From Tubulanus polymorphus (lineage: Eukaryota > Animalia > Nemertea): a stretch of DNA of 64,000 nt. The notes beneath the pieces were generated by a model, which worked only from the letters and a program-made list of their open reading frames with translations, ran no database searches and had not been told where the DNA came from. Every line of letters starts with the position of its first letter. Position 1 is the stretch's first letter. Shown piece after piece: positions 13,996 to 41,757 of this stretch. The DNA lies in NCBI RefSeq assembly GCF_964204645.1, contig NC_134031.1, forward strand, positions 8,866,001 through 8,930,000, written 5' to 3'. Position numbers and translations under genes: made by a program.

Positions 13996-14451
13996 TTAAT
14001 AACCATAAGGTAATGTTTTTATTCCATCACCCAAAATATATCTTTTATCGTCGAATGGATTAAAACTAGTTTTTTCAACTTCATTAATGTACATCTCGTG
14101 ATCTTCTGATCTTAAACAATTCATTTTATGTTTCATTACAATTGAGTTATATAAACACTTAATATAATCTTGAAATTCTATATGTTTATCAACCACATGC
14201 TTTGTTATTCCTTTTAACTTATTAGCTTCATGGTCTTTTGTTCTATAACTATACATTTTACTTCTTATCCCAACAAATTCAATCATTTCATCACCCCCTA
14301 ATTCATCTTTAAATTTACCAGGCTGCTTTTTATTTTCGTTACTAAATAATTCATGATCTTTTGGATAATTGCTTAAGTCAAAATGATGTTTTAATGTTTT
14401 TAAGTCTTTTGTTATGTCATTTGTCTTAATTTTTAGTATGTAAGCATCCGT
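13996..14451 (-). pseudogene. polB: Protein-primed PolB C-terminus (C-extein), family 2
   Basis: TDAYILKIKT...GKFKDELGG..MIEFVGIRSKMYSY...KGI...FDDKRYIL. Confidence 0.92.
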
Positions 14452-15305
14452 ACTCTTGAGGATTAATGGGAACCCAGAATTGAATGTTCCATCATCTGTT
14501 GATAAATCATAAACATAATCTGATGGGTTATATATTTCAAATAAATCTCTAACGTTTTCTGTGAACTCATTTTCTACATGTGTTTGAATATATTAGGTTT
14601 ATCCTTTATAATTTCTAAACGCATATTAAAAGCTAATTAGTTACATAACACATTTAACCCACTTATTGCAACTTTTCCTTTTTGTGCAAAGGTTATCTTT
14701 TTATCCTTTGTAAATTTTTTAGCACCATCTGCAGCATAGAATCCTAAGAAATACCCTTTTCTTAGATTATATTTTGCATTTAATACATAATCTGGCACTA
14801 TCTTTTCTTTTGTTGAAGTATAACTTTTAACTATTGCATGAATGTAGAATTCATCATTATATTTTATAGCAAAATCTTTTGGATTATTTACATGTATTCT
14901 ATAACATTGTGATGATTTCATAACATCTATGATTTTAAATATTTTATTTGGAAAAATTTCTTCACAATATTTTTTAATTTTTTCTAATAATTTCAAATCT
15001 TGATTACATAAATACCAACAATATTGAGTGCGACTAACATAATTATACACACCTGCTGAACCATCTCCCATAAAAAATCCTTTAATAAAATATTCTTTTT
15101 CTTCTAATGCTTCAGGTTCTATATTATAAATATTATCAGCTATTTCATCAAATGACATATGATTCATTCTTGGATAAAATCTTTTATGTAATAATTCACC
15201 TCCAATTTCTATATCAGTTGGTTTATTTCATCACCACTTCGTTTAATTAAACTGTGATCTTCAGTAACATCTATAAACCCTAATTTAGTTCTAACTCTAT
15301 AAAAT
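14452..15305 (-). mobile_element. Intein with LAGLIDADG homing endonuclease in pPolB motif C (N-terminus deleted, decayed)
   Basis: Block B YRVRTKLGFIDVTEDHSL; two LAGLIDADG helices FIKGFFMGDG and YFLGFYAADG; block F/G YVYDLSTDDGTFNSGFPLILKS followed directly by extein TDAY. Confidence 0.88.
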
Positions 15306-15992
15306 CATTCAATTACAAGGTTTCAATTTATAATCTTTTTTGTTGGCATTATTGATTTGCAAAAATCTTTGTTATCAATCACATAATTCTTTATGTTTTA
15401 GTAATGCATTTTCAGTTCTTAATTTAGATAAACATTTTCTACATAAATTTATTTTGTTATGACTGTTGAAATCACTTTCTGTTTTAAAGAATAAATCTAT
15501 TTTTTTAACCACATAAAATGTTCATTTTCATCTTTTTTGTAATATAACAAATCTATAACATTTTCATCATCATAATATTCTGTTAAATATAATGCTTGTT
15601 ATGTATAATCTTTAATATTTTCACCTTTTGTGAAATTTTATATAATGTTTCATATTTCCGATAATCTGTTATTCTACAAACATTTTCCTGTTGGGTGTAA
15701 ACAACTAATAATTGACCATAGAAAACATTTATCATCTTCATTTTGAACATTTATTACTGCTTTTGTTGTAAATGGTAATTTAATATAAGATGATGCTTTA
15801 ATTTCCTTTTCTGTTGAAAATTTTGAATCATTTGTAAACATTTTAATACTTTTTGATATTTTATCCCTTTTTGTATTATGAATATTTAAATCTAAAAACA
15901 TAATTTCATTCAATGTTAAACCAGAACCTTGAAAATATCTTTCTTCAATATGACGTTTAAATTCATTAAATATTTTTTCTAATCTCTCTTTT
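15306..15992 (-). pseudogene. polB: pPolB N-terminal region, family 2
   Basis: YFQGSGL, ASSYIKLP...VINVQNEDDKCFLWSI, LCRKCLS; near-identical to 49740-50470. Confidence 0.85.
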
Positions 15993-15999
15993 TTTCGGG

Positions 16000-17372
16000 T
16001 ATACCAGGTTCGATCCAAACTTAGACGACAGCGCACTCTGACAGTACTAACAACGAGGTGTATTTCTCATAGTGAACTAACCCAGTTTTGACTTTATTTC
16101 CCCTTTTATAGTTACAGAATCAGCTGAACAGTAAATTGAACAAACAAGCGTGAACAGCAGTACAGGTTGTTCGGTTGTTCGCTTTATAATAAGGATTACA
16201 GATTGCACGTCTCGAACTGCGTCTCGTAGCTCTCTGGAACCGCGTTGGGAATGATGACGGTCTCCTCAATTCCTTTCACTGTTGATCTCCAGCGGATACA
16301 GTTTGTTTATTGGTCTAGAGGTTCGTCCTGAAGTTGTGCGAATAATTGCGGAACGAACTTTGTTATCTAGTCCGCGGTTTAGGTTTTCCACGATCGCTAT
16401 TTCCAATTGATACGCGGTGTATCTGCGTGCACTTGGACCAAATCGCCTATTTTGATCACTTCGTTATTATCACCTGATGACAAGAGCCGCTCTCTTAGTG
16501 CCGTCAAATATTCATGGTGCCATCTAGCCCAGAAGTGCTTTATCAACTGAGCACGACGAACGAAACGCGTGTTCAACTGAATAAACCCGTAATCTGGATC
16601 ACTCATATCGTCGTCATCCACGAGAGGATGAGGTAAACCAGTCAATCGGCGACCATGCAGCAAATGGGAGGGTGTTAGAGGTAGTAAATCTGAAAAACTC
16701 GAAGAGATATAAGTTAGTGGTCGGTCGTTGACAACACATTCACATTCTACGATTAGTGTACTCAATAGACGCCATAAACTGTTTAATTTCGGATGACTGC
16801 AGTAGCTCGTTCAATTCATTTGAAGCGCATGTAAATGTTGACGCATTATCACTGATAACAACTCTCGGCAACGACCTCCATGCAGAAAATCTGCGAAAAG
16901 CTTGGATGAATGAATCAGCACTAAGATCAGAGACTAGTTCAAGGTGAATGGCACGTGTTACCGCGCATGTGAATAGGCAAATATAAACTTTTGCAAAACC
17001 CGAACTTGTTTTGACATTCAATGCCCCAGTATAATCGACACCTGAGATTGAAAATGGTGGATATTCATTCACCCGTACCGCTTGTAATGGAGCAGGATCT
17101 GGTAATTTATAAGGCTTGCTTAACAACAGCCTGCAAGTAAAACAAGATCGTAAGACAGAATTCACACACTGACGAATACTAGGAATCCAGTATTTTTCTC
17201 TGATGAAACAAATTGTTTCACCCGGACCCGCATGCATGATTAAACAATGCACATATTTTATGTACAAACGAGTAAAATGACTGTATTTCGGCAGCAAAGC
17301 AGGGAATTTTGATGAACTTAGCAATTGAGAGTTATGAATTCTCCCCTCTGAGCGCAAAACCCGGTTTTGTCT
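16000..17372 (-). mobile_element. pol: BEL/Pao family 2 integrase and 3' end
   Basis: HAGP...CFTC, GVDYTGA, CLFTCAVTRAIHLE, ISDNASTF, NDRPL, PLTPSHLLHGR, RPINKLYPLE. Confidence 0.9.
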
Positions 17373-18408
17373 AGAAAGCATGAGTCTGCATCCGTAGTAC
17401 TTTCTTAGAAGAGCGAGGTCTATCACATTTCTGCAAATAAAACCGTTTTGCTTAAAACTGCAGTAGCTAATGTTTACAGCCCGATATCCAACGTACAATG
17501 TACAGCAAACCTGCTCTTCGATGAAGGTTCTACGCGTTCTTTTGTTACTGAAGATTTGACTAAACAATTGCAATTAGTACCTATTCGATCTGAAAATGTA
17601 GACATCTCTACCTTTAGAGGTACGAAACAGGGTCATCGAAAGATGGACGTTGTTAGATTGTCGATTCAAGCGTTATCGGGTGAAAACATTTCAATTGATG
17701 CGTTAGTCTGTCCTAAAATAGCGTCATCATTAGTTAATTGCATTCATTCAGCGGTTGAAAAATATCCATATTTACAGGGTTTGAAGTTAGCCAGTCCTGC
17801 AGTTAATTCTAACTCTTTCGATGTTTCAATGCTCATAGGTGTTGATAAATATTGGTCATTTGTAGGCGATCAAGTGATTCGAGGACATGGACCTACCGCA
17901 GTTTGGTCAAAATTAGGCTATTTATTATCAGGGCCGCTGAATGAGCGTAATTCTAACTCAATTATCATGAATATCGTAACTTCTCATGAAGAAGAGAACA
18001 TAGATTTAGAGAGTTTTTGGAAATTAGAATCGGTAGGTATTGATAGTAAGACTGATGATGGAATGTGTTTTTATGATGATTATTGCCATGATTGTATCAC
18101 GTTCCAAGATGGTCGCTACACAGCTAGACTACCTTGGAAATCGAACCACGCCGAATTATCTGATAATTATACTGTTTCTAAAGCGAGGACACGATCTATG
18201 GTTCGAAAATTGACCCCTGAATTACGAAACACTTATGACAATATTATCCGAGATCAAGTCAATAGAGGGTTCATTGAGTTAGTTGAAGAAAGTGACCCTC
18301 TAATGAGGCCGTGCCATTATATCCCTCATCACCCGGTCTTCAAGAATAGTGCTACCACACCAATTAGAGTGGTTTATAATTGTAGTTGTAGTATTGGCGG
18401 TAAACCGA
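17373..18408 (+). pseudogene. pol: BEL/Pao family 2 protease and RT N-terminus (inverted relative to the adjacent integrase)
   Basis: LLKTAVA, LLFDEGSTRSFV, SKLGYLLSG, FWKLESVG, HYIPHHPV, TTPIRVVYNCS. Confidence 0.9.
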
Positions 18409-18444
18409 GTTATTACTATTTTCAACACTTTTATTTGTGTGAAC

Positions 18445-19205
18445 CTATAAATATTGGTTTATTAAATTTCATTGACGTTCTTTTTAATTTTACTGCTGTT
18501 AAATAATCTTCAAATCTTTTATTTCCTAAGTGTCTAGGACTTGATTGTAAATGTCTCAATCGTTCAGAATTATTTACTAATTCAATATCATTTCTATTTC
18601 TAATATTTTCACGTTTTCCCATAAAAACTATTATTCATTAATTAAAAAAAATCATTTTCAAAATCTGTTTTAGAAATTGTTCTCTGTTGAGTATTGAAAT
18701 CTATATATTTTTCTAACCACTTCGATTGATTAAATTCAATATATCTATGTACTTTCTTTAATTTCATTCCTTGTTTTAGATAAAATTTTAACATTCTATA
18801 ATGAACGATATAATTATATTTATTATTTTGTGTTAATATCAATTTTTCTGTAAAAACATGATCTTTCGGTTTTATTTTCTTCTGGTATTCACTTAGATAA
18901 CTATCATCTACGGCTAAATGTTCTGGGCAATAAGGTAAGTTTCTTGTTTTAAACTTTATATTTTCAGGATTTTTTAAATCAACTACAAAGAAATAACCAA
19001 TTGGAGCATCATCTTTTATACCCATGATTGCACTTTCCCAATCAGTTTTATCATCATTTTTAACTTCTGTTAATATACAATTTTTATATGGTTGGTGTTG
19101 CATCATTGCCCAACCATATAAATTATTGGCGTCAATGTATAGTAATTTATATTCATCATTTGCTTTAAAATACCTATCGCCCATAACACAACTAATTCCA
19201 CCTCT
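18445..19205 (-). pseudogene. polB: pPolB polymerase motifs A and B, family 2
   Basis: RGGIS, LLYIDANNLYGWAM, LMNNSFYGK, MKFNKPIFIG. Confidence 0.9.
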
Positions 19206-20461
19206 AATTGATTTTTGGCGAACCGTAGGTTTGACTATGCAAACGGTCTGATGAAGCAGTTTTCATTGAAAATGAATAGAGTACCGGTGTGTCAACAAGG
19301 CACAAACATTGGCTGTTGAACCAATAGTGTTGATTTTTAGTGTCATGGTTTGGCTTAATGAGTTCTCGAGCCCACAAAAATTTCATAGTGATCGAGTTAT
19401 TTTTAGGGGACTTATTCTTGAAAAACACACAAAAACCCTGCTTTTTAGCACTAAGTAATGGCACGTTTTTACATATGACAATTTGCATGCTTGGAATTGA
19501 AATATATAAAAGTTCAATCCTTCCTGGAAGTGTCGCCGTTTTTAGTTCGACTGATCTCAATGTACTTTTCGACCAACAGGCCCTCACTTTATAAAGCCCC
19601 TAAATTTCCTCGCTTCTATTTATTTGAGTTGACCTTGTAACCAGAGCTACAATGAATGTGATTGGCTGTTTGTGGGATATACGGGACATTCCGGGAATTT
19701 CGCCGTTTCTGATGTCATTAGGAAAGCCCATTGGCAAAGCCTAATGTGAAACCCAAAACAAAATGGCGCGCATTTTATTTTATTTGTTTTGATTTCTAGA
19801 AAAAAAGTCTGTATATGTTTGTATTTTTTACATTTTGTCGATGGATGGATTCTGACTTGTGAAATTGCGGTCAATCTAATACTGCGTCGCTAGTACATTT
19901 GTATATACGCACGTCAGCTGTCAGCCGCGTGTGTGCGAATATAGGTTACAGTTTGTGGTGTGTTAGTAATCACCTGAGCGAGTCTATATATAGGCAATTA
20001 TAGTATTCACAATTCAATTCAATTCTTTCTTCACAGCACTCTCACACATCTGCAGGCGCATAAATTGTCAGCCTCATACTTTTCTAATCCAAATTAATTC
20101 ATATTTAGTATAATATTTTTGACAATATATGCACTCAATGATTTAATGGTGAGCCACAGGGCGATTGGACCTTTATTTAAAATAATAAAACCATGTCTGG
20201 TTCTTTTAATAAATCTAATTCTACATTTGTATTTGTATTCTACATTTTAAACCACATTGCCAAGTTAAGGTATTGGTATAGTAGAATTTCTAAATTCTTC
20301 AAATAGCAAGTTAAAGATATTAAACCTATGGTAGTGTGACCTCTATACAAAATGTTACACATTCAAAAATTAATTTTTTTAATTTAAATCAACGGATTCA
20401 AATCTATGAGGTTTAACACCTAGCCGGCGAGCTAAGGATCTGATAACCAGCTGATGTCAAG

Positions 20462-20495
20462 ATGTCAAACTTCGAGACTTTAAAGCAGCTACGGA
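20462..20495 (+). pseudogene. gag: First 11 codons of BEL family 1 gag, split by the Polinton
   Basis: MSNFETLKQLR joins in frame to TTHRGQFTKLK at 41758 once the element and one TSD copy are removed. Confidence 0.85.
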
Positions 20496-21050
20496 AGTAA
20501 TAGGGGTAATGGGGCTTTCAAGCCAAAGGTCGAACGGTCGAGCTCATTAAAAAACAAAACATTAAAAGTAATTTAAAACTATAATATATTTTCATAACCG
20601 TGTGTATTTTATATTATAACTAAATATTTATTCTAAGATATTAATAATTTTAATTTTAAAAGCATATTACCGCGACCAATTGATTTATTTACAATACACA
20701 AATTCATATAATCAAATATATTTTAATAATAATTATTATTCTATTATTCAACTGAAATACACACGGTTATGAAAATATATTATAGTTTTAAATTACTTTT
20801 AATATTTGTTTTTAATGAACTCGACCATTCAACCTTTAACCTGAAAGCCCATTACCCCTATTACTCTTAAAATAATCATATACATGAATAACATTTAAAT
20901 TTACAGATTATTCAATATAAAAGTATATATTTACAACATTATTTCAATATTCATATTTGTATGAGTTAGATTTTTAAACATTAAAAGTGTTAGTAAAGTG
21001 TGATTGAAATAATACATGATATAAATCATTGAACTTCTAAAATCAATTTA
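20496..21050 (+). repeat. Left TIR, containing an internal palindrome at 20496-20865
   Basis: Reverse complement of 41156-41751 except for a ~40 bp deletion in the central hairpin. Confidence 0.93.
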
Positions 21051-21071
21051 AAAAAAAAATTTAGTATTAAA

Positions 21072-24000
21072 ATGGAAGCAAATAAGTACTACTGTCCAAC
21101 ATGTAATATCAATATAGATAAATCCCAAAAAGCAAGACACAATAAAACTAAAACACATTTAGAGAATAAATTGAAACTAGAATATAAAGATGATATATTA
21201 GAAACTAAATTAGATGAATTAAAGAATGAAAAAGAAACATACAAATGTGATACATGTAATCAATCATTCAGTGATAAAATATATTATAATGAACATTTAA
21301 AATCTAAAAGTCATATTAGAAATAAGAATAATGATATTTTAGGTGAAGATTATTTTGATAAAGATAATGATAAGAAACAGAAGACAATTAAAAGCATAAA
21401 AGATAAATTAAACAATAAAAGATCATACATGGAAGATGTAAGAAATTATATTAATTCATTAGATAATAAAAAAGATATAGAGATAACCGAAGCATTTAAA
21501 AGTGATATTGGCCCAGCAGCTATCGAGTTTAAATTTCATAAAGGAAAAACATTAGAAGAAAATAAAAAACATTTAGAAAATATGAAAGAAATAATAAAAA
21601 TAATAACTGATGTTGAATATCCTAAAATAAGTATATCTTCTAAAGTTAAATTCATAAAATCTGAAGATAAACATATAAATAATATAACCGTAATAATAAT
21701 ATATATATAATATAAATTCTCATTCACAACATATTATTTCAAAACAACATATAGATGAAAAATTAAAAAAATGTTAATATGTCAAAGTCGAAACTTGGTG
21801 AAGCGCACAGCCAGTCTTAAGTTTTAATGAATAAATAGAGGCGAGTGCCCTGTCGGCAACTTATATAGAACATTGTAAAAAAATAGGTTTTGCGGGGGCA
21901 CCTGTGTTCGACGTGGTCCGTGGCCAAAGAAAATCACCCAAAATGTCGAAGATCTATTCGAGCGAAGATTCGCCGTGATCAAATACATGTATAGAAAAGG
22001 AATTCATTTTTGCGAAAAAAACATGCTTTTGGAGTGTTGATTACAAATAGAAAGCCTTGTTTGTTTTACGACAATAAATCTTCCTGTATCGTCAGATATG
22101 TTCTACGAACGGCTTTAACAGTTTTATATGTTTTACACAAGAAATTTGAAGATTAAAAAAGAAAAAAATCATTTTTTGCGAAAAACAACGTAGGAGTTTG
22201 GGAATGTTGATTACGTATTGAGAGCCTATGGTTTTATCGATTATACGAAAATAAATTTTTCTAGTTTAAAAATGTCAGATTTCTACATTAAATCTCATGG
22301 CTTCAATAGTTTGATATGTTTTACACTAAAGATTTGTTCCTAAGTATTACAACGGGTTGCATGGGTACGGAATTAATGGAACAACGGTATTTTAAATACG
22401 GTACGGATTATAGCGAATTTTACTCGAAACGGAAAAGGGGAATAACGTTTGAAAAACGGGAGTAAAAAACACATAAAGATACGATATGTTAAAAAACGCA
22501 CGGCATTTTACTCCCAGGGATTGGCAAAATTCTGATTTAATTATTCAGTACTTGTGTGGAGCGGGACGGTCATTTTGTAACACGCGGACCGCGCGCGCGT
22601 TATTCTCCGGGACTCGACCCTTAGTGATGCTGTGAAACCGGCGCTCTTGTTATTCTAAAAAAAATCGACCCGTTGCTAAGGGACTGTGCTTTTTGTGGGA
22701 TTCGAATCCAGTCTTCCAATCGGTTTCTACGGAGAAATACGAACTAAAATGACATTTCTTTGACAATATTTCGTGAATATTCTTTGTAAATATTCTGAAA
22801 ATTACACAAAATCGTTTTGTTATCCTTCATTCACGTATTTAAACTACCCGCGCGACGCGGCCCGCAAGTTTCGACGAAAGTCGTCCGTGACCGTCATTTT
22901 CGTCGCCGCGATTTAGCCAATGCCCATGTGTCCCGGATGTAAACTACACTTTTTGAGAAGGACGGTATGGAGAAATATAGAAAATTTGAATTTGCCTCAT
23001 ACGCGCGATTAACTTAAGGAGCTTCCAGCTCGCGCCTTCGGCGCTCGCTGTGCGCTTATAATGAAGTGAAACTAAAATAGAAGAGAAATATTTTGAAGGA
23101 TCTGGTTTAATATTTGATGAAATAATATTTATGACTTTACATGTTTATAACACAAAATATAATAAGTTAACTAAATCAAAAACCAATAGATGAAAATAAT
23201 GTATCATATTATAAAGAACCAGATATTGAAGCATCGAGTTATATTAAATTACCATTTAAAACTAATGCTGTTATAAATGTACAAAATGAAGATGATAAAT
23301 GTTTTCTATGGGCTATAATAAGTTGTTTACATCCAGTTGAAGATTATAATAAACATACTTATAGATTAACTCATTATAAACCATTTGAAAATAATTATAA
23401 GATAGATAAGTATCCTGTAATAATTAAAAACATCCCAAAAATAGAAAGAGATAATAATATAAAGATAAATGTATTTGATTTAATCAAATTACCAAATACA
23501 AAAGGTAACAATATAAAACATTATACATTAGAACCTTTATATCTATCAAAAGATTATGATTCAAATGATGTTATAGATATATTATATTATGAGAATCATT
23601 ATATGTGGATTAAAAAATTGATTTATTTTTTAAACCAGAAAATGATTTTGATAATAAAATATATCTATGTAGAAAATGTTTACATAGATTCAGTAATGAA
23701 AGTGCATTATTAAATCATAAACAATTATGTGAAAATCATGATTATTGTAAATTAGTTTTACCAAATGAAAAAGATAAAATATTAGAATTCAAAAAATATG
23801 ATTACAAAAATAAAGTACCATTTGTTATATATGGAGATTTTGAATCATTAAATAAAGAATTAACTGATCAAGATAGAAAAGAAATATATTATAAAAGAAA
23901 GAAATTAAATTCTAATGAAAATGATTTTTCAGATGAACCACCAAAAACAAATACTATTAAAAAGATTCATCAATCAGCTGCAGCTTTCGGGTTATATATT

Positions 24001-26423
24001 AAATCTGATTATCCAGAACTAATTAAAAGTGAATATTATCATTATAGAAATGAAAATGTTTTCAATCATTTTTGTGACTTATTAATCGAGTATGAAATAA
24101 GATTTAGTAAATTATTGAATACAAATATAGAAATTATAATGACAGAAGAAGATGAAGAAGAATTTGAGTTTGCAGATAAATGTTATTATTGTGAAAAGAT
24201 ATTTAATTATAAAGATAAAAAGTAAGAGACCATGATCATTTGAATGGAAAGTTTAGAGGCGCTGCGCATGAGAATTGTAACTTACAAGCTAAGAAAATCA
24301 ATTTTGTACCAGTTATAGTTCATAATCTATCAGGATATGATGCACATTTATTCATCAAACAGTTATGCCATAAAATAGAAGAAATCAATAATGAAATAGA
24401 AATATTAAATTCAAATAGATCAAAAGATAAAATACCAACTTATAAATTTAGAATGTTAGCTAAAACATCTGAGAATTATATATCATTCCACTTTGGTTGC
24501 CTAAGATTTATAGATTCATATAGATTTTTAAATAGTTCATTAGATAACTTATCAAAATCATTAGTTGATGATGAATTAAAGATATTAAAAGAATATTACC
24601 CAAATAATGATGATTTTCAATTAATGAGATATAAAGGCGCAATTCCATATTCTTTCTATAAAAATCATAATGATTTTAACATAACTGAATTATTGAAAGA
24701 ACAATTCTATGATGAATTAAAAAATGAATATGTCAAAGATGAAGTATATAATAGAACATTGAATATTTGGAATCATTTTGGAATGAAAAATCATGGGCAA
24801 TTAGTAGATATATATTTAAAATCAGATGTATTATTATTAACCGATATATTCGAAAGGTTTAGAGATGTAAACCTAAAATATTTTAACATTGATCCTTGTC
24901 ATTGTTATTCATCACCAGGTTTAACATGGGATTGTGGATTAAAATTTACAGATATAAAAATGGATTTGTTAACAAATATAGATCAATTACTATTATTTGA
25001 AAAATCTATAAGAGGAGGAGTTTCAGGTGTATTAGGTGATAGGTATTTCAATGTAAATGATAACCCTGGATATAAGTTATTATATATAGATGCAAATAAT
25101 TTGTATGGTTGGGCAATGATGGAACCACAACCTTATGGAGTATTTGAATCAACTGAAGTTTTACAGAATGAAAATAATGATAAATTTGATTGGAAGAAAA
25201 GAATCCTAGATATTGCAGATAATTCAGATACTGGTTACTTCTTTGTTGTAGATTTAGAATATCCTGAAGATAAAAAATTTAAATCTAGAAATCTAGCTTA
25301 CTGCCCCGAACATAAAACCGTAACTCATGAAGAATTATCAAATTACCAAAAAAGAATTAAACCCGAAAATCATATTCATACAGAAAAGTTAATGGTAACT
25401 CAGGAAGATAAATATAATTATGTAGTACATTATAGAATGTTAAAGTTTTATTTGAATCAAGGAATGATCCTAAAAAAAGTACATAGATATATTTCATTTT
25501 GACAATCTAAGTGGTTAGAAAAATATATAGATTTTAACACCAAACAGAGAACTAAAGCTAAAACTGATTTCGAAAAAGATTTCTTCAAGTTGATGAACAA
25601 TGCATTCTATGGTAAGACTTGTTAAAATATTAGAAATAGAAATGATATTGAGTTAGTTAGTAATGGTAAAAGAATTAGACATTTACAATCATATCCTAAG
25701 TTTTTAGGTAACAGAATATTTGATGAAAATTTAGCTGCAGTTAAGATGAGAAGAACATCAATGAAATTTAATAAACCAATCTATGATGGATATTCAGTTT
25801 TAGAATTATCAAAATTACTAATGTATGAATTCTATTATAATATATTACAACCACTTTTTGGAGAAAAACATATAGAAATCTTATATTTTGATACCGATTC
25901 TTACATATTAAAGATAAAAACTGATAACATAACTGATGATTTAAAAACATTAAAACATCATTTTGATTTCAGTAATTATCCAAAAAATCATGAATTGTTT
26001 AGCAATGATAATAAAAAAGTTCCCGGTAAATTCAAAGATGAATTAGGTGGTGAAGAAATGATTGAATTCATCGGTATTAGATCTAAAATGTATTCATATA
26101 AAACTAAAGAACATGAAGCTAAAAAGTTAAAAGGAATAACTAAAAGTGTAGTAGAAAAGAATATTCATTTCAAAGATTACATCAATTGTATATTCAATGA
26201 AGAAGTTAGAAAACATAAGATGAGATGTATAAGATCTGAAGATCATGAAATGTTTATTGAAGAAATTGAAAAGATAAGTCTAAACCCATTTGATGATAAA
26301 AGATATATTTTAGATGATGGAATTCATACAGTTGCTTATGGTTGTAATTTAGATGAATACTTAAAATTTAAAAGAGAAGAAACAAAAGAGAACGAGATAA
26401 TGAAAAGAATTCTAACGTGTTAA
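21072..26423 (+). pseudogene. polB: Protein-primed DNA polymerase B with N-terminal Zn fingers and an endonuclease VII-like domain (disrupted, intein-free)
   Basis: CPTC..H..H and CDTC..H..H; EGSG; VRDHDHLNGKFRGAAHENCN; HNLSGYD; FIDS; YIDANNLYG; [10 protein letters not shown]; YFDTDS; insertion 21779-23058, frameshifts and stops. Confidence 0.95.
21779..23058. mobile_element. Non-autonomous element inserted in pPolB
   Basis: PolB frame KKM(F)N/EVK is interrupted; inverted aagcgcacagc (21801) / gctgtgcgctt (23047); terminal hairpin gcgcc-ttc-ggcgc; taat on both sides. Confidence 0.7.
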
Positions 26424-26452
26424 TCAAATTTTAATAAAAATATGTATTATAA

Positions 26453-26806
26453 ATGGAGAGTAAACAAACACACAGTGAGAACAACAAATTATTTCTAGAT
26501 AGAATTAAAGATATCACAAATGTAAAATCTGTAGATTATAAATTCAAAAAGTTAACAGAATTAACAATCCATAAGAAATATCTAATTACAAATATTGATA
26601 CAGTTACTAATAACTATGGAGATAAATTAGTTATACACTTAGAATATGAAGGATTAAAAGGAAATACACATAAATTCAGAACATATTTACCGGATAGATT
26701 TCATAGATTATCAAGTGAAGACTTAGAAGAATTATGTTCTGGTGATTTCTATTTCGTATACAAAGGTAAGAATGAAAAGGGGCACAATGAAATAGATTTC
26801 GAATAA
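26453..26806 (+). CDS. Polinton hypothetical protein (possible OB-fold/ssDNA-binding)
   Basis: Intact 117 aa ORF directly after pPolB; beta-rich FKKLTEL...YGDKLVI...YLPDRF pattern; the fold is inference. Confidence 0.7.
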   Translation: MESKQTHSENNKLFLDRIKDITNVKSVDYKFKKLTELTIHKKYLITNIDTVTNNYGDKLVIHLEYEGLKGNTHKFRTYLPDRFHRLSSEDLEELCSGDFYFVYKGKNEKGHNEIDFE

Positions 26807-26823
26807 GAAAATATGTAAAATAA

Positions 26824-27575
26824 ATGGTAGAATTAAAAGAATACAGGATATTTGTTGATTCTAGAAGGCTTACAAATTATAAATCTCATAATTTACTAGT
26901 TCAATTAGATAGAGAATTCAAGAATTGTGTAGATTTAAAATTAGTTAATATAAGTTTATGTAATTCTTTTTACAATGTATCGGATAAAACTATTGAACAT
27001 AGAGTCTTTTTAATTCATGATAGAAATAAAAGTAAATGGTTTCATCTTTATCTTAAACCAGGATTATATAATTTAGAAACATTAGCTCAAGAAATTAATA
27101 AAAGAGCTCGGTTGAAAATGGGTGCATCTGCTGGATTTGGATTAAGACTGATTAAAAGTGATAGCTCTGATAAAATAAGAATAAAATTAGGTAATGAAGA
27201 TCAACATCAATTTCTAGTTACAAAACCTTTAGCTAAAATTTTAGGAATAACCCCAGATGTAAGGATACGCAATGCTGATGCTACACCAAATATAATGCCT
27301 TTTACACACTTTTATATTTATTGTAATTTAATCGATCCTACAAAAACATTCGAAGCAACTAAAGATATAACTTGTAATTCTGGTTTACTAAACATTTTAC
27401 CATTGAAGAATGTTAAAGAATTTGGAACGCAAATAAATTATAATTTAACAGAATGTGATTTCAAACCATGCATTCCTAAATTTAATAATTTTAAATTAGA
27501 AATCATAATGGATACTTAATTGATTTAAATAATTTCCCTGTAATTTATGAATTAGTTATAAGATGTATAGAGTAA
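26824..27575 (+). pseudogene. Minor capsid protein (penton, single jelly roll), frameshifted near the C-terminus
   Basis: IFVDSR, NSFYNV, PGLYN..TL, YIYCNLID, and in the shifted frame NGYLIDLNNFPVIYELVIR*, a pattern typical of Polinton minor capsids. Confidence 0.75.
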
Positions 27576-27591
27576 TTTTTTCACTATATAA

Positions 27592-27939
27592 ATGAATATA
27601 ACTGTTGGACCGAGTATATGTTTTGGGTTTGATTTTAAACGTGAGAAAGAAATGAGAATTAAACTAAATGATGTAATTACTGATATAAAAAGTAAATCAT
27701 TTAACAATGCATCAATGATTAATAAAGAAAATTATAATATAGAAAAAGTAATTGATTTAATTAAATCACCTTTAGAATATTATGAATTAAATGAAGATGG
27801 AATTATTGATGATATTAAAAACATATTAACCAAAATATATGATAATCATAAAAGTAGTAATGAAATAAATGTTGAATTAATCATCACTAAGATAACTAAA
27901 TATTTTGAAGATAGTAATTTTTTTTGGATAAATAAATGA
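27592..27939 (+). CDS. Polinton hypothetical protein
   Basis: 115 aa ORF, TAAATG start, tightly packed. Confidence 0.7.
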   Translation: MNITVGPSICFGFDFKREKEMRIKLNDVITDIKSKSFNNASMINKENYNIEKVIDLIKSPLEYYELNEDGIIDDIKNILTKIYDNHKSSNEINVELIITKITKYFEDSNFFWINK

Positions 27940-28157
27940 GTGATAATAAGTGGATAATAACTGGATTATATAATGGAGCCTTACTATCAGTTGGAACTGT
28001 TGGTTATTCAATGGTATTAAAAAAAGTATTCAAAATGGGAAGTGTTAATGTTGGTAGATTTGATATAAATGATATTTTAAAATTAACATTAGCAGTAACT
28101 TTATCTAATTTAACTATTGATTATTTAGAAAAACAAAAATATATTCCTCCCGTATGA
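27936..28157 (+). CDS. Small hydrophobic Polinton protein
   Basis: 73 aa ORF with two hydrophobic segments; ATGA overlap with the previous gene. Confidence 0.75.
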   Translation: MSDNKWIITGLYNGALLSVGTVGYSMVLKKVFKMGSVNVGRFDINDILKLTLAVTLSNLTIDYLEKQKYIPPV

Positions 28158-28181
28158 ATGCGTAATTATTTTACTAAATAA

Positions 28182-28604
28182 ATGGCTTCTGCTGCTGTAA
28201 CTATTATAGGATCGGCAATTGTTAACGCTTTGGCATTTACTGGTGGTAGTTATTTATTCAAGAAAATTGATGAAAATGGTTCATTATCAGAACAAAAAAG
28301 ACATAACTTAGCATCAGAGGAATACAATAAAGCTGCAGAAGAATATAGAGAAAAGAGACAAAATTATATGGATTACATCAATAAAGAATTAACTTATCAG
28401 AATATTTCACATAGAGATTTTCAATCAGTTGATGATGCAATGAGTTTATATAACGCGGTAACAAATAAAGAAAAATTACATCTATACAAACCTAAATTAT
28501 CAGATTATTATACCCCAAGTAATGAACAGAAGAAATATGAAATAATTTGGATTTTAGGTGGAACAGTTATTGTTATATTTGTTGCTTATAAGTTTACTAA
28601 TTAG
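28182..28604 (+). CDS. Polinton membrane protein (N-terminal hydrophobic helix, coiled coil, C-terminal TM)
   Basis: MASAAVTIIGSAIVNALAFTGGSYLF...EQKRHNLASE...IIWILGGTVIVIFVAY. Confidence 0.8.
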   Translation: MASAAVTIIGSAIVNALAFTGGSYLFKKIDENGSLSEQKRHNLASEEYNKAAEEYREKRQNYMDYINKELTYQNISHRDFQSVDDAMSLYNAVTNKEKLHLYKPKLSDYYTPSNEQKKYEIIWILGGTVIVIFVAYKFTN

Positions 28605-28624
28605 TAATTTTTTTTGCTAAATAA

Positions 28625-29059
28625 ATGGATGATAAAGTTGATAATATTGATACTATTCCTCATGATATAAATAAAACTAAATTAAAAACATATTTAGAAA
28701 AACAAATATTAGAATTTGAAAGTGACTTAAAGATAAAAAAGAAAAAATATTTAAAAAGTAAAATTATATATTATTTGATTATAAGTGGTTCGGTTACAAT
28801 TAGTTCTGTAATAACATTTCTAGCAATATTCAGCCAATTAACACCTTTAGCTATATCAATTGGTGTGTTAAGATTAAGTTCAAGTGTTTTAACTGGTATA
28901 AGTTCACAATTAAATATAAAAAGTAATAAAGAAAAAATTAAAACTAATATAAAAGAAATTAATAAATTGAAAAATACACTAGATTATATAATAAGTTTAA
29001 ATGGTCATATAACAGTTGAAGAACAAGATAAATTATTAAAAGAATTAATAAATTATTAA
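28625..29059 (+). CDS. Two-TM coiled-coil protein
   Basis: 144 aa ORF with a central hydrophobic hairpin flanked by Lys-rich helices. Confidence 0.75.
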   Translation: MDDKVDNIDTIPHDINKTKLKTYLEKQILEFESDLKIKKKKYLKSKIIYYLIISGSVTISSVITFLAIFSQLTPLAISIGVLRLSSSVLTGISSQLNIKSNKEKIKTNIKEINKLKNTLDYIISLNGHITVEEQDKLLKELINY

Positions 29060-29075
29060 TTTTTTAATTATATAA

Positions 29076-30471
29076 ATGGCAGATAGTTTTCCAAAAGCTT
29101 TCCAATATAATAAATCAATTAAATGTAATATTCCAGCAATAGATTTTAATAAAGATATTTCATATAGAAATGAAGTTTTAAATTCATTAATTGATTTATA
29201 TATTTATGTTACTGAAAGTAATAATTTTCATGTAAAGATGGAAAATATATTCAATGTTTATGAAATTAATTTTGAAAAAGAATTAAGTAAAGCAAAATTA
29301 TGGATGTTAAAATCAAATATGCAATTCTGGCAAAACCAATTAAATTTGCTGTTTATTGCGCAACAACAGGATGCGGAATAAGTTGGAATGATCCTTTAAA
29401 TAAACCAAGTTTACCATTGATATTATCATTCTTTAGATTTCATACATACTTTCAAATAATATTAATATTAAATGAATTAGAGTGTCCTTTACCAGGGTCT
29501 AGATATTTTAAAGAATTAGATAATAACGTTGATTTATCAAAGTATTATAAAATATGTAATGAATTTAATATAGATATAAATAATTCTGATTTTAGATCAA
29601 AGATGGGAACAATTACAGGGGGAGATTTATCTAAAGTAGAGAAAGCTTTGGATGCAATGAATAATTCATCATTTCCAATCGGAGGTTTTTATGTCCCTTA
29701 TACTAAAGAATATAGAAAAGAAATAAAAAATACAAACTCAAAAACGTTTAAATGGAATGAAATACCAAAATATTATATTTATATCAAACAACAACAAAAT
29801 AATGATGGTTGGATTAATTTTATTTTAGAAAATAGTGAAGGTTTTACTAAAGCTGGAATACAAAGAATAAATCAATCAATTAGAACTTATTTGATATTCT
29901 AGGTGCGCAAGTTGAAACAAGATCCCCAATAATTGGAAATTTAAATACATCATTTGATACACAAAAACAATTCAAAGTATTATTTGAAGATTCAATTCAT
30001 AATGATAAAAATAGATCGAAACCGGAAAACATTGCAAGATATCAAAATTATTTAGATAAATCACATATCAGATTAAATTATTGTATAGGCCCTAATCTAT
30101 TAATTATTTCTAATGATTTAGTATTAAAGATGGGAAACATAATTGGTTATAATAATCTAATTAAAACTGCAACAATAAATAATTCATTTGGATTGAATGA
30201 TATAAATAAAAAGATTATTACTGCTCCAAAATTAATGGAAGGTGAAAAAAATAAAAAACACATTCAATCAACAGAAACTAAAACTAAGAATATTAAATTG
30301 GATAATGATTCCAAAATAAAAGATTACAATATATCAGAAGATATAAAAACTGATAATATTCACCATGATATAATTAAAATAAATGATGATAATAAATCCC
30401 ATGAAAATACTAAATTGGCTATAACTTGTATAGGAATTGTAATCGGAGGAATATTATATTTTAAATTTTAA
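29076..30471 (+). pseudogene. Polinton conserved protein with C-terminal TM anchor (frameshifted)
   Basis: ORFs 29076, 29300 and 30130 join via frameshifts (FWQNQL/FAVYCATTGCGIS; RTYL/ILGAQVETRS); ends LAITCIGIVIGGILYFKF. Confidence 0.75.
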
Positions 30472-30487
30472 TTTTTTTATTATGTAA

Positions 30488-31149
30488 ATGGCAGAAGGTG
30501 GGGAAGATATTCCATTGGATCCTTTTGGTGACACCCCCGGTATAACTGATGAACAACAACCTGATTTTAGTGAAACAAATTTTAACGATGGTAATGAGCC
30601 AGGATATAATACTAATTTAGGTGAAGATGATGATTATGATGTAATTAATTCCGAATTACGTGAAAATTTAAATGAAATTAAAATTAAAATAACAGGTGTA
30701 GTTGTAAACGAAATATTGCCAAAAGATGTAATAGATGAAATTGGTTCAGAAGGTGTTGTAGAACAAATTTTAAAAGATGACCCATTTTTCATGAATAATT
30801 TAGAATTTAAAAATGATGCATGGTATTATAATGTTGAATTAAATAACAAAAATGTATCAATTCAATTATCTAGAATGGGTCAAGAAAATATGTATGAACC
30901 TGTAATGTTAGCAAGATCTACAATTGAACATTCAAAAGGTGGCACAGAATTTCTCAGAATTATATGGAATGCAATCGATAGAATAAATAAAGAAAAACAA
31001 ATTCCTAAAATTGATATAAACAAATATTCACCATTTAAAAATCCAAATTTAAATCCTCCTGATTTTGATCCAGAAATGGAAGAATATGGAGATCGATCAG
31101 ATAGATTAAGATCTTCAACACCAGAAACATCGAGAAGAGACACTCAACA
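30488..31149 (+). pseudogene. Acidic Polinton protein truncated by the Penelope insertion
   Basis: MAEGGEDIPLDPF...; the ORF stops at the start of the pLTR. Confidence 0.7.
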
Positions 31150-31217
31150 CTGATTACTTGAATTAGTCTCTTTGTCTCTGGATTGTATATATATCTCATA
31201 ATTTCTGTTTTATCTCA

Positions 31218-31265
31218 TTATTCCTGAAGATGACTATTAGGATATAGTCGAAACGTTGAAATATA
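31218..31265 (+). ncRNA. Hammerhead ribozyme in the 5' pLTR
   Basis: CTGAAGA-t-GACTAT(tagg at)ATAGTC-GAAAC-GTT. Confidence 0.8.
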
Positions 31266-31363
31266 CTACTATCTCGAAGTTTCATTTTCGGACTTTTTAT
31301 TATCATTGTGGGATTCTCTCCTCATCGCGTCAACACGGATATTGTGTTCTACCTATCGTGATC

Positions 31364-33762
31364 ATGCTACCCACGGATCGAAATATCGTATTAAAATTCT
31401 TCTTCTTCACGTTCCCGTACCTCGTCGCTAGCTTCCGAAATTATGAGAAATGCTATATCAAATCCAGGACTGCCAAAAGTAAAGTCAAGTTCCTTCAGGA
31501 GTGTTATGCCGAAAAAGTGGTTCCGCGATCACTTTCTTGGATTTGGAAATACGACTCCAGCTCTGCGTTTCCACCCGAAGCTAACAAGCAACTCAAATTC
31601 GCTATAGATCGTGCTAAGGAAGACTGTAACTATCAGTTCTACAAATTCCGTCAATCTCAAAATTATTTGAAGTCACACGTACCGGACCTATTCCTCTGGA
31701 AATCGCTCTCCACTATTGTTCAAGGCTCTGGAAAATATCATCAGCACAGAAAGTCCGTGGATCTTACCAACCAACTGAATAAACTCATTGATTCCAGCCC
31801 TTGGACTAGATTTAGCAACACCGAAAACATAGTAAATTTGTCTTCAACCACGTTATCTTCTACTCAGTGTCAACTTCTCGGCTACGGTTTGAATTTTTCT
31901 CTTCCTCATCAAGATAAATATGTTTTAGACTTTGTCACCCAATTGGAATATCGCAAATCATCTCCAAACAGTTTGGACTATAACTTTATATTCATGAATC
32001 TACAGGCTATATGCGATCAACTCAACAGGAACCTTTTTGAATATCTACCTCGTCGATTTCGGCTCGCCCTCCAAGAACTACGGAAGTTAAAGACTATTAA
32101 AATATCTAAGGCTGATAAAGGTGGCAAGATTGTGATTTTAGATCTGGATAATTATAATGTTAAAATGCAATCTCTCTTGGATAATCCTGGTGTTTATAAG
32201 AAACTTAAATCGAATCCTCTTCCTCGTATGCAAGCTAATTTCAACAGAAGTCTTTCGGATATTATTAAACGTTTCCCCTCCGCTAAAGAAACTCTGAATA
32301 AGTTCCATTCACGTCTTCCCTCTTTACCATATATCTATGGATTGCCTAAAATTCATAAAGATAATGTTCCACTGCGCCCTATAGTCTCCAATTGTAATTC
32401 TCCTACATACCGGTTATCTAAATTTCTCGCGAAACAGTTATCTCCGGTGCTCGGTTCGTTCTCTCCGTCGCACCTTCGCCATAATCAACACTTACTTGAA
32501 CGTATTAAGAATATTATCCCTGGCAACGACAAATTTATATCATTTGATGTTACTTCCCTTTTTACCAATGTTCCTCTTGGACCTACTCTTGATTTCTTAA
32601 AACGCAGATTACCATCACTTAACATTAACTTCGGCATTCCTACGGATTGTATCATCGACCTTATCTCTATTTGTACGACGGACTCCTTTTTTGAATTCAA
32701 CAATTGTTTTTACGAACAGACATTCGGTATCGCTATGGGAAATCCTCTTAGTCCTATTCTAGCTAATTTATTCCTAGAACATGTTGAATCTCAAATATTG
32801 CCTCTTTACACTGATATTCACCCTAAAATCTGGCTCAGATATGTTGACGATGTTCTGGCTTTGGTTCCCTTTGACTTCAATGTTGATAACTTTCTTATAT
32901 ATTTAAACTCCCTTTACCCGTCTCTGGCTTTTACGTATGAATGGGAATCTAATAGTAAAATACCTTTTCTGGATGTTTTGATTTTTAACTGTGGATCCTT
33001 TTTGAAATTCGCGGTTTATAGGAAACCTACCAACGCTGAATCCTACCTCCATTACTTCTCTTTTACTTCTCCGGATATTAAACTCGGTTTAGCTCAAGGA
33101 TTATTTCTTCGCGCTTTGAGAATTTGCGACCCCTCATTTCTACCCGATGAAATTCACCATATTAACCAATCTCTCAAAAAACTTGCCTACCCCGATTTCC
33201 TATTGAAAAAAGCTCTACTTAAAGCTCGTACTACGCATTTTAGAAATAACAACCTTAGAACTCCTACGTTGGCTACCGATAAACAGCCAATCATTGTACC
33301 GTATGTACCTTTCCTCGAGAATTCTAAAGTTTCTCTTCGGTCACTAAATAAACAACTTATCTTTAAATACAATAATAAACTTAGTAACATATTGATTAAC
33401 AACAAACCGAAAACCGAATCCCTAAACTGTGGAATTTATAAAATACCTTGTAAAGTTTGCGACAAAGTATATATAGGAGAAACAGGTATCTTAATCAACG
33501 CATAAAAGAGCATAAATTAGATGTAAAAAACTTTAAACCTGAAAGCGGAGTTGCTAGTCATGTTTTTCAGACTTCACACAATTTTGATTTTGCTAATGCT
33601 GAATTAGTTTACCCTTGCAGCGATAAAACTAGAAGACATATTTTGGAATCTGCATTAATTATGGAAAATTCGAACAACGTTGTAAACCTTAACAATGGTT
33701 TTTCACCCCATAATAAACTTATATCAAAATTCCTCTGTAAACTGGTTAAACTCAACACTTGA
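31364..33762 (+). CDS. Penelope RT plus GIY-YIG endonuclease (one frameshift near 33487)
   Basis: KADKG, YGLPKIHK, PLRPIVS, SFDVTSLFT, GIAMGNPLSP, RYVDD, CGIYKIPC..C...YIGETG / RIKEH. Confidence 0.95.
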
Positions 33763-34072
33763 TTTCCCCTTTGATTATTTGTTATTTGTTCTCTCATCAA
33801 TTTCGTCTCTGACTTAACTTGTATTCACCTTTGTTTTAATTTAAGTGCCCCCTAGTTTGTCTTTCTTTTTACTACTGACTTTAAGTTTCATTTATATTTA
33901 TACTCACTATTGTTGTTTATAATCACCCCTTAGTTTGCTTCCCTTTAATCTATTTTAGCGTGTAACTGTTTCTTCGTTAATTTTTCCTTTAGTTTGTATC
34001 ATCTCTGATTACTTGAATTAGTCTCTTTGTCTCTGGATTGTATATATATCTCATAATTTCTGTTTTATCTCA

Positions 34073-34120
34073 TTATTCCTGAAGATGACTATTAGGATAT
34101 AGTCGAAACGTTGAAATAAA
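34073..34120 (+). ncRNA. Hammerhead ribozyme in the 3' pLTR
   Basis: Same core as 31218-31265. Confidence 0.8.
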
Positions 34121-34315
34121 CTACTATCTCGAAGTTTCATTTTCGGACTTTTTATTATCATTGTGGGATTCTCTCCTCATCGCGTCAACACGGATATTGT
34201 GTTCTACCTATCGAGATTTAATTTTATTCCATAATTCTGAAACGTTAGAATATGATACTTCACTCTCTGGGTTATGATATAACTCTCTTAAATATTGTTC
34301 TTTTTTCATCTTCTT

Positions 34316-34684
34316 TTAATCCATTAATAATAATTTAGATTTAGTTTCAATGACTTTATGATTTGACTTATTTTCTGGTATGATAGGTTTATTATCATTG
34401 GAATCATCTTTTTCATCAGATTTGAATTTTGATTTATATATTACACCAGATAATATAATAACTGTTACTAATCCAATTGTAATATATAAGTTATTATTAC
34501 TTCCAGCATTAGAAGAATTAGATGGATTATTATTTGAATCAATATCAGATAAAGTCTGTGATTCATTTATATCAGTTAATTTCTTTTTCTTAGCCTTTTT
34601 TAATTCTGCAGATCTTTTACCTAATTCTCTTGCCCATTTAATTTGTTTTTCAGATCTAGCCTTTTTCTTAACGCCATCACTCAT
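34316..34684 (-). CDS. TM hypothetical protein (homologue of 2486..2854)
   Basis: 122 aa, near-identical. Confidence 0.8.
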   Translation of the reverse strand: MSDGVKKKARSEKQIKWARELGKRSAELKKAKKKKLTDINESQTLSDIDSNNNPSNSSNAGSNNNLYITIGLVTVIILSGVIYKSKFKSDEKDDSNDNKPIIPENKSNHKVIETKSKLLLMD

Positions 34685-34710
34685 TTATTTTAGTTAATTT
34701 TTGTTCTGAT

Positions 34711-35271
34711 TCATTTTCTGTTTCGACGTTTGGTTTCATTCTTACCTGATTTATATTCCATAGGCTTGATATTCGAAAATGTTATGACGCCAGTAGAAAT
34801 TAATGTCATAACCGATCCTAATTGGAATGAAGCATATCCAACCCATTTTTGTAATTCAGTCATAACTAAGTAGTCATTTTTCAAATCACTATATAATTTA
34901 TTTTCATCATCAATTGGTATTAACTGGTTACATAACTTAGAATAACATTTGACAATACCATCACTTATAGAATCATTTATTCGGGATAATCTAGCTTCTT
35001 CATAAATCTTAAAATATTTTATTACTTTATCGGGTTTCATAACATCTAGTTCTTGAAAAGTAATAGTCTTAGTTAAAAACTCCTTAGTTTTTCCACCGGC
35101 AATCAATAGTTCTAGATGATGCTTACAATATAAATAGTATTCATAATCTATATTACAATTAACTTGAATATTATTTTCAATTTTGGTCGGAATATCCTTA
35201 TTATCACTAATGCCCAAATCATCTAATGTCTTTTCAATATCAATACTATTCTTATTAGATTTTTTTGACAT
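34711..35271 (-). CDS. Hypothetical protein (homologue of 2847..3449, C-terminal frameshift)
   Basis: Near-identical until ...GKNET. Confidence 0.75.
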   Translation of the reverse strand: MSKKSNKNSIDIEKTLDDLGISDNKDIPTKIENNIQVNCNIDYEYYLYCKHHLELLIAGGKTKEFLTKTITFQELDVMKPDKVIKYFKIYEEARLSRINDSISDGIVKCYSKLCNQLIPIDDENKLYSDLKNDYLVMTELQKWVGYASFQLGSVMTLISTGVITFSNIKPMEYKSGKNETKRRNRK

Positions 35272-35518
35272 TTATATTAGAGAAATTTAATAAGAAAAAA
35301 AATATAAGTATTATAAAATGATACCAGTATCTCTTTAGATTAATACTAGCTTAGTTAAAGGTAAAGAATTTTAGTATTAGTTATTGTTTTTTTAGTATTT
35401 TTTATTTGTGATATAAAGTATTCTTTTTTGAAAAGAAAATATTAAAAATATAATAGAATTCACTAGCTAGTTGAAGTTATTGTTTTTTAAATACTTTTTA
35501 TTTAAAATCTATTATTCT

Positions 35519-36189
35519 TTAACCACTCATTAAAGACTCAACATATTGTTCATTATTTGGATCATTGTTCCATAATTCAATGAATTTTTTTTGCTTTATC
35601 TAATTGATCCAAATATAACTGTAAATCTAGTTTATAAGATTTGATTTGATTTTTCTTTCTTTTCTAAAGGCCTTAAATTCTTCCAATTCCAAATAAGTTT
35701 TTTATTGTATTCATCATTCATGTTAAATTTAGATATTGGTAACACGTGATCAATATGGTAATAATCCCCATAATTATCTACATTCATTTTATCATCGAAT
35801 TGAAATATAATCCATGATTTGAGAAATTCATCTGAACAACCCAATAAATTAGATAGTGTTTCTGAATGTGTTTCTTTGTTGAATAATTGTGTTAATCTAG
35901 ACCGTAAACATTGTTTTAATCTAAAATTAAGATCTGTTTGATATCTTTCTCTCATATATTCTGCCATATAATAATTATAATGTTCTATATTATCTTCTCG
36001 GTATTGTTTGGTATATAGTTAAGTACAAGTTTTACAGCAATATTGAAAACCATCTTTGCTAATCTTACGCTTACTAAATTCTGTTAAAGCTAATTTATCT
36101 AATTCACATTTAGAACACTTCTTGCAATATATATTTATAACACCAGTGTTATTTGTAATATTGATAGTTTGTGGTTGTTCTGGTTCCAT
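35519..36189 (-). pseudogene. Zn-ribbon plus HNH endonuclease, copy B
   Basis: YHIDHVLPISKF...NWKNLRPLEKKE; stop and frameshifts. Confidence 0.8.
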
Positions 36190-37311: not shown

Positions 37312-37563
37312 TCAAATAGAATCAGGTTCTAGTATAAACATCGGATCCTTGATATCAAATTCCTCAACGTATTGTTCATTATTTGGATCATTATTCCATA
37401 ATTCAATAAATTTCTTTGCCTTTGTTAACTGTTCTGAATATAACTGTAAATATTCTAGTTTCAATTTATTCTCTAAATGTGTTTTAGTTTTATTGTGTCT
37501 TGCTTTTTGGGATTTATCTATATTGATATTACATGTTGGACAGTAGTACTTATTTGCTTCCAT
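37312..37563 (-). other. Chimeric ORF: pPolB N-terminal 38 aa fused to the HNH C-terminus
   Basis: MEANKYYCPTC...KLKLEY identical to 21072; LQLY.EQLTKAKKFI...EFDIKDP matches the end of ORF 40457..40792. Confidence 0.8.
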
Positions 37564-37642
37564 TTTAATACTAAATTTTTTATTAAAATTGATTTTAGAA
37601 GTTATTCATTTATATTTTATTCATATATATGAATATTTTAAG

Positions 37643-38036: not shown

Positions 38037-38077
38037 AACATATTATGCGGTTCGAATATGAATAAATCTTTATTCAT
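38037..38077 (-). pseudogene. ATPase first ~14 codons (outer element), cut by the nested copy
   Basis: MNKDLFIFEPHNML matches the start of 813..1395. Confidence 0.85.
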
Positions 38078-38085
38078 TTATTCTT

Positions 38086-39186: not shown

Positions 39187-39192
39187 CTTATT

Positions 39193-41134: not shown

Positions 41135-41155
41135 TTATTATACATATTTTTTTAC

Positions 41156-41751: not shown

Positions 41752-41757
41752 TACGGA

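Follow-up and report, generated by a model that had tools for sequence, protein, structure and literature searches.

A decayed LAGLIDADG intein in motif C of a Polinton DNA polymerase and its intact relatives, akin to giant-virus inteins

The stretch of DNA under study (64,000 nucleotides, called the window below) carries on its minus strand, at 15301-14452, a decayed intein, Hint splicing domain and LAGLIDADG homing endonuclease together, which lies in motif C (YxD/TDS, the slash marking the point of insertion) of the protein-primed DNA polymerase B (pPolB) of a Polinton. Its parts and neighbours are collected in Table 1. An earlier note, made from the letters alone, had pointed to block B, to two LAGLIDADG motifs and to blocks F/G running into the polymerase, and each of these was found where it had been placed on the minus strand: besides block B, GFFMGDG lies at 15080-15060 and GFYAADG at 14744-14724, and blocks F/G (YVYDLSTDDGTFNSGFPLILKS, 14517-14452) continue in frame into TDAYILKIKT from 14451, past which another 151 polymerase codons follow.

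Table 1. Intein, polymerase pieces and neighbouring mobile elements in the window
Feature	Position	Strand	Evidence
C-extein: pPolB from the motif C +1 Thr to the stop 13998-13996, open	13996..14451	-	77% identity to the in-window paralogue (23059-26423); 74-79% to P0293/P0294/P0296, 59% to P0001
Intein C-terminal splicing region, ends in Ser	14452..14583	-	profile 318-354, E=2.5e-5
End of the endonuclease domain beyond the in-frame stop, to the frameshift near 14592-14583	14577..14639	-	profile 289-306, weak, E=1.6
LAGLIDADG homing endonuclease domain, 196 open codons	14640..15227	-	PF14528 at cut-off; 58% to P0001; E=7e-50
Block B (VTEDHS), YRVRTKLGFIDVTEDHSL	15301-15248	-	69% to P0001 1255-1283; profile 77-103, E=1.6e-8
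Broken pPolB N-terminal piece adjoining block B	15321..15990	-	92-94% nucleotide identity to 49724-50480; matches P0293 residues 176-458
BEL/Pao LTR retrotransposon pieces (integrase, aspartic protease/DUF1758, DUF5641-like)	16269..18506		domain matches
Middle pPolB piece (P0293 residues 869-1129), stops short of motif C	18440..19217	-	sequence comparison
Nest of Polinton remains; inverted end repeats 20492-21080 / 41126-41755, 91%	20492..41755		repeats, domains
Intein-free paralogous pPolB, itself broken, empty site YFD/TDSYILKIKT near 25890	23059..26423	+	PF03175 E=4e-12

The Pfam model LAGLIDADG_3 (PF14528) matches the window ORF at its gathering score (22.5 bits, E=1.4e-4). Further, a custom profile of length 355, made from 162 motif-C inteins from outside Polintons, was compared with 2653 pieces of the window, and the three that fell below E=1e-4 are collinear along it (positions 77-103, 103-286 and 318-354, with the E values of Table 1); in the reversed window, the best of 2934 pieces reached E=2.2 with the same profile. 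The broken window pieces alone had no Hint match in Pfam or NCBIfam, and a PDB sequence search with the endonuclease ORF gave no meaningful match; the Hint assignment of the window copy comes from the custom profile and the intact relatives. The HMM search that the earlier note had suggested was borne out for LAGLIDADG and by the custom profile, while the public Hint models stayed silent on the broken pieces.

As had also been claimed, the copy is decayed and without block A. Its pieces are spread over three frames, with frameshifts near 15224-15215 and 14592-14583 and a stop at 14639-14637, and positions 1-76 of the custom profile were unmatched anywhere in the window. Block B still reads VTEDHS (TxxH) and block F reads VYDL, with its Asp. 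The last intein residue is Ser, where intact relatives have Asn, and the +1 Thr is kept; both residues read as first described. The window copy is dead, a fossil of the homing cycle proposed below, and can neither splice nor home. The broken N-terminal polymerase piece next to block B marks a deletion or rearrangement which took away block A and the N-extein junction. Many contigs from four sequencing runs of a single study (organism A, at most 2 samples) contain the intein at 80-99% likeness; one of them spans the intein/C-extein junction, reaching 41 letters beyond it in one direction and 125 in the other. Every one of the four runs also has a contig that ceases to match at 15301 and goes on for 43-198 letters unlike the window; hence the left break at 15301 is particular to the window copy. 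It may be added that the pPolB pieces at 50487-48532, 19217-18440 and 15301-13999 correspond to nearly consecutive residues of the intact relative P0001 (181-882, 891-1150 and 1255-1689); they may be parts of one scrambled element or of sister copies.

Because the intein-free paralogue in the window reads straight through motif C, the insertion site can be placed between the two catalytic aspartates of that motif. The Polinton pieces are flanked and interrupted by Peptidase_A17, DUF1759 and DUF5641 domains of BEL/Pao type, and LINE-type reverse transcriptases also occur in the window. According to PMC3118150 the BEL/Pao subclass is metazoan, so the host is probably an animal. Integrases with rve and chromo domains lie at 1391-2188 and 38089-38985 and a Pox_A32 ATPase at 816-1241; these, like the inverted end repeats, may or may not belong to the element of the intein fragment. 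A penton-like ORF (26827-27516) resembles DUF5901 / V18-19 minor-capsid clusters below the recognition threshold and serves as a lead only; neither a major capsid protein nor a maturation protease had a Pfam match in the window, and no cellular gene was recognised among the 84 window ORFs scanned. HNH-like free-standing ORFs are repeated in the Polinton remains, at 35635-36018, 40460-41134 and 4015-4383 (weak HNH_4, E=0.008), and tandem and dispersed repeats with units of ~120-160 bp are common to 55700-59900 and 5850-6450.

With the endonuclease ORF we found P0001, an unbroken pPolB of 1693 aa (57-58% identity; PF03175, PF14528 and, below its cut-off, PF14890), whose junctions read IYGD/SVTSDT...FPLIISN/TDSLVLKIKT. 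A search with the P0001 intein returned 1302 proteins, the best 120 of which comprise 5 pPolBs, 114 proteins with PF00136 (RNA-primed PolB) and 1 topoisomerase. The five pPolBs among these best 120 are P0001, P0018, P0028, P0032 and P0033, all intact and intein-bearing; PF03175 is found in P0001, P0018 and P0028, and PF14890 exceeds its cut-off in P0018 (37.7 bits) and lies below it in the other four. All five whole inteins have block A with Ser1, VTEDHS, both acidic residues of the LAGLIDADG motifs, VYD, a terminal Asn and the +1 Thr and, like giant-virus-type inteins, carry H, K or S as their penultimate residue. The claim of an intein in a Polinton PolB was thus upheld, with the LAGLIDADG ORF in frame within pPolB and, in the intact relatives, block A directly after YxD. 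Two extra members are the partial P0341 and the fragment P0151, which is 74-77% identical to the window copy and has a canonical Asn/Thr junction.

A structural model of the P0001 intein (pLDDT 77, pTM 0.81) matches solved LAGLIDADG inteins (7qst, E=6e-15; 7qsu, 1dq3, 1vde) as well as, among viral models, the PolB inteins of a phycodnavirus, Pandoravirus, Megavirus, Marseillevirus and HaV; the model predicts a Hint fold with an inserted LAGLIDADG domain of two motifs. Inteins are rare among the extein relatives (3 in the best 120 of 5387). P0001, P0028 and P0033 are each represented by one sequence on a short contig (5-13 kb), and P0028 is presumably a VSR-type pPolB2, going by a motif read by eye. 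Viral contigs scanned with the window ORF, P0001 and P0028 yielded no locus.

Outside their own clade, the Polinton inteins are closest to PolB inteins of giant-virus type that occupy the same site. Thirteen of 15 loci with the junction motif come from named giant-virus MAGs, and P0047 has a near-identical counterpart, L001, in a giant-virus MAG. All 22 loci fetched in scans with the intein alignment and the junction pattern have exteins of RNA-primed type, the pPolB extein being found at 0 of the 22. Of 188 extracted inteins, 158 sit at YGD/TD. When other-site inteins are included, the Polinton clade nests among the giant-virus-type ones with support of 93/94; a tree that holds all giant-virus-type motif-C inteins together, with the Polinton clade outside, is not rejected (p-AU=0.077), and midpoint rooting of a 44-row intein tree makes the Polinton clade sister to the rest. 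Transfer from a giant virus to a Polinton is, in our opinion, the likely direction, and likely rather than shown, since the alternative tree stands. Hence the origin from a large DNA virus that the earlier note had suspected holds as kinship (trees, fold, giant-virus MAG loci), and not firmly as a direction.

We reconstructed the intein and the polymerase phylogenies separately, as had been proposed at the outset, and the two disagree: the inteins form one clade while the polymerases that carry them are scattered among intein-free ones. In the 44-row intein tree the 8 Polinton rows, window included, share one branch (100/99), which has support of 0.997 in a tree of 182 rows; the window intein is sister to P0151, and then to P0001. 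Near-copies of P0018, P0032, P0002, P0003 and P0004 were left out of the intein trees, and P0374, a fused gene model, was left out of the extein tree. In the latter (126 rows) the intein-bearing rows occur in five places. AU tests were made on 28 of the 126 extein rows, P0028 being outside this test, and on 36 intein rows. In the 28-row extein subset the 5 intein-bearing rows need 4 changes, and a single clade of them is rejected (p-AU=1e-41); the intein label is there no more clustered than in shuffles (94/500 as low), a measure that is blind to gain versus loss. The intein of P0028 is 42-46% identical to other Polinton inteins on exteins that barely align, hence a lateral jump is needed in its case. 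For pairs of pPolB1 type the intein identity (44-47%) is close to that of the exteins (40-46%); this is as compatible with old co-descent and repeated loss as it is with repeated jumps.

Filled and empty alleles can be compared directly in the P0018 family. The cluster comprises 136 sequences, with contigs of up to 1.0 Mb among the members listed, and therefore suggests a multi-copy integrated family. Among the 15 members listed, 7 are filled, 6 are empty and 2 are too short. The empty copies are 95-99% identical to the filled ones in the N-extein, and they are without exactly 346 intein residues (P0144/P0146 against P0018). We compared the flanks at the protein level, with two further empty copies, P0301 and P0302. 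Divergence between filled and empty alleles reaches 41% at -11..+9, more than in any other of the 118 windows (median 1.7%), and remains elevated as far as ~+49, a region in which the filled copies are identical; among the empties themselves the same window is second highest at 17.7% (median 2.5%), the highest being 22.5% at -401. This has the pattern of co-conversion from a donor family, as homing would leave. The empties carry YTD/CDS, YFD/TDA and YGD/TDA where the filled copies have YMD/TDS, and these variants may be escape alleles. Escape is a reading and not a result, because intein-free relatives also vary at motif C in general (YMDCDS 26, YMDTDS 20, GFDTDS 11). The 26 intein-free relatives with YMDCDS instead of the usual DTD include P0303 and P0311-P0313. 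We also noticed short degenerate fragments that resemble the P0018 intein (P0152, P0153, P0155, P0156, P0169, P0170, P0185, P0196, P0210, P0231, P0243, P0259, P0265, P0277 and P0281); P0152 and P0153, which group with P0018, lie on contigs over 200 kb and are decayed copies in eukaryote-like assemblies.

How might such a clade arise and persist? We find it rather likely that the Polinton motif-C inteins go back to a single entry from a giant-virus PolB and have been kept by homing among Polintons; the stretch at 15301-14452 is a decayed copy of one of them. Self-copying between Polintons is likely because the intact relatives occur beside insert-free copies. By established intein biology, splicing of the precursor would restore motif C, so that an active polymerase would come from splicing-competent copies alone; an intein endonuclease cuts empty alleles, whereupon repair copies the intein. 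In intact elements the intein would be translated with the polymerase and is predicted to remove itself through class-1 splicing (Ser1, block-B Thr/His, block-F Asp, terminal Asn and +1 Thr, the class-1 residues being as in PMC549080), which would restore the active site. The putative endonuclease would cut DNA at motif C wherever the allele is empty, and a filled allele used as the repair template would pass on the intein along with ~10 codons of flank on its upstream side and as many as ~50 on its downstream side. Empty targets could be supplied by the many Polinton copies of a genome or by co-infecting elements, and the first entry may have happened in a cell that a Polinton and a giant virus both occupied.

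Alternatively, one ancient invasion of a Polinton ancestor could have been followed by mostly vertical descent with many precise losses and little homing at present. The similar intein and extein identities of the pPolB1-type pairs agree with this, and so does the grouping of the window intein with P0001, whose extein belongs to the same broad clade as the closest extein relatives of the window copy. However, P0028 would still require a jump between barely alignable polymerases, the sharp divergence of flanks between alleles that are otherwise 98-99% identical is unexpected from precise loss, and none of the five intact copies has lost its endonuclease motifs; we leave this scenario a small chance of being right. 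Somewhat less probable, in our opinion, is a source other than a giant virus, either by movement in the opposite direction or from a third source that served both. The support for nesting and the p-AU value given above leave some room for it, but carriers of giant-virus type are far more numerous and diverse (114 of the best 120 matches; the bulk of extracted inteins at YGD/TD), and the site has long been known in Mimivirus and archaeal PolB (PMC549080).

Two doubts concern the material itself rather than the evolutionary scenario. The host may not be an animal, or the intact relatives may be protist or free viral elements, as the lack of any recognised cellular gene among the scanned window ORFs would allow. 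Against it speak the BEL/Pao domains around and within the Polinton pieces, of a subclass described as metazoan (PMC3118150), and the fact that corals account for both of the named eukaryote records in the extein matches (37-42% identity); we regard it as unlikely, and the point about Polintons stands regardless. Finally, the region is heavily rearranged, which could raise the suspicion of a chance juxtaposition, an assembly chimera or a passively captured giant-virus fragment. We give this hardly any credence, as the junction is exact and in frame, P0151 has the same junction, an organism A contig bridges it, and there are five independent intact proteins; a chimera or chance junction is ruled out by the exact in-frame junction and the intact relatives.

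The preferred reading, entry from a giant virus and homing among Polintons, concerns an intein type that is itself known. At position III, which is motif C, the PolB inteins known from Mimivirus and other Nucleocytoviricota and from archaea (Ogata et al. 2005, PMC549080; Green et al. 2018, PMC5784728) share with those described here the site between the catalytic aspartates, the size (351 aa against 337-354 aa here), Ser1, the Asn end, the +1 Thr and the central LAGLIDADG domain. Identity to giant-virus-type inteins is 30-42% among the best 120 matches. The Polinton inteins differ in forming their own clade, apart from the giant-virus-type motif-C inteins, in their host, the protein-primed PolB (PF03175) of an integrating element instead of an RNA-primed PolB, and in the -2 residue, which is G, M, L or S, whereas YGD is near-constant in giant-virus and archaeal inteins.

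Nuclease domains inside Polinton polymerases have been reported before, namely HNH and VSR inserts in pPolB2 (Jeong et al. 2023, PMC10748475), in the main text of which the terms intein, Hint and LAGLIDADG occur 0 times. A single sentence in Krupovic et al. 2024 (PMC11071308) suggests that these inserts stem from intein invasions, and this passing speculation on other nuclease inserts is what a check of the literature on intein-bearing Maverick polymerases, also proposed earlier, brought to light. The HNH/VSR inserts are described there with no splicing domain reported, whereas here a complete Hint and LAGLIDADG unit splits the catalytic motif and has filled and empty alleles; identity with them was rejected. 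Endogenized giant-virus PolB inteins (Gallot-Lavallee et al. 2023, PMC10710043; PMC5784728) are, as here, viral-type polymerase inteins on nuclear scaffolds. The sections of PMC10710043 and PMC5784728 on nuclear eukaryotic inteins report them from fungi, algae and protists and list no animal, and polinton, maverick, metazoa and animal occur 0 times in PMC10710043. The self-cleaving Hedgehog/Hint domains of animals have the Hint fold and related chemistry in common with inteins (PMC5784728), but no embedded endonuclease, no split host enzyme and no empty alleles, and a Hedgehog-type Hint was rejected. A free-standing endonuclease gene was rejected as well.

Term counts gave 0 occurrences of intein in PMC8502044 and PMC13215967, and other papers mention inteins just generally in the parts consulted (PMC12220804, PMC3671162, PMC13768754, PMC5718144, 10.1101/299784). 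In the literature searched, a Hint-bearing intein was nowhere described from a Polinton polymerase; supplements, subscription journals and Repbase lie outside it, so an earlier annotation is possible. Within that literature the Polinton motif-C intein clade is previously undescribed; the intein type is known, and the host and the lifestyle are new.

A canonical intein in the protein-primed polymerase of an integrating element, in a likely animal genome, would widen the range of inteins beyond the fungi, algae, protists and giant viruses covered by PMC5784728 and PMC10710043. Homing needs empty alleles, which ordinary single-copy animal genes lack and a multi-copy Polinton family would supply; this gives a testable reason for the usual absence of inteins. 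Homing also needs donor and recipient DNA in one cell, so kinship with giant-virus inteins would mark cells shared by animal-type Polintons and Nucleocytoviricota, which bears on whether these Polintons are virophage-like. It is tempting to go further and speculate that Polintons bring a true homing intein into animal nuclei, with gene drive among integrated copies and an arms race at motif C with escape, the intein itself being the trace left where Polintons and giant viruses infected the same animal cells; we hold this as possible, and would not put it at even chances. The P0018 family is in any case a natural panel of filled and empty alleles for studies of homing and escape.

Some polymerases met in the searches deserve separate mention. 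P0002 is an intein-bearing, Pol-delta-like PolB with a C-terminal zf-C4pol match (E=1e-4); its intein is a weakly supported sister of the Polinton clade in the 182-row tree and not elsewhere. P0003 (and P0006) is a giant-virus-type PolB which besides its intein has an in-frame insert of dihydrofolate reductase (DHFR, PF00186, E=9e-60) at residues 446-601. P0016, P0019, P0021 and P0071, likewise of giant-virus type, have two motif C inteins three residues apart (YGD/../TD/../S).
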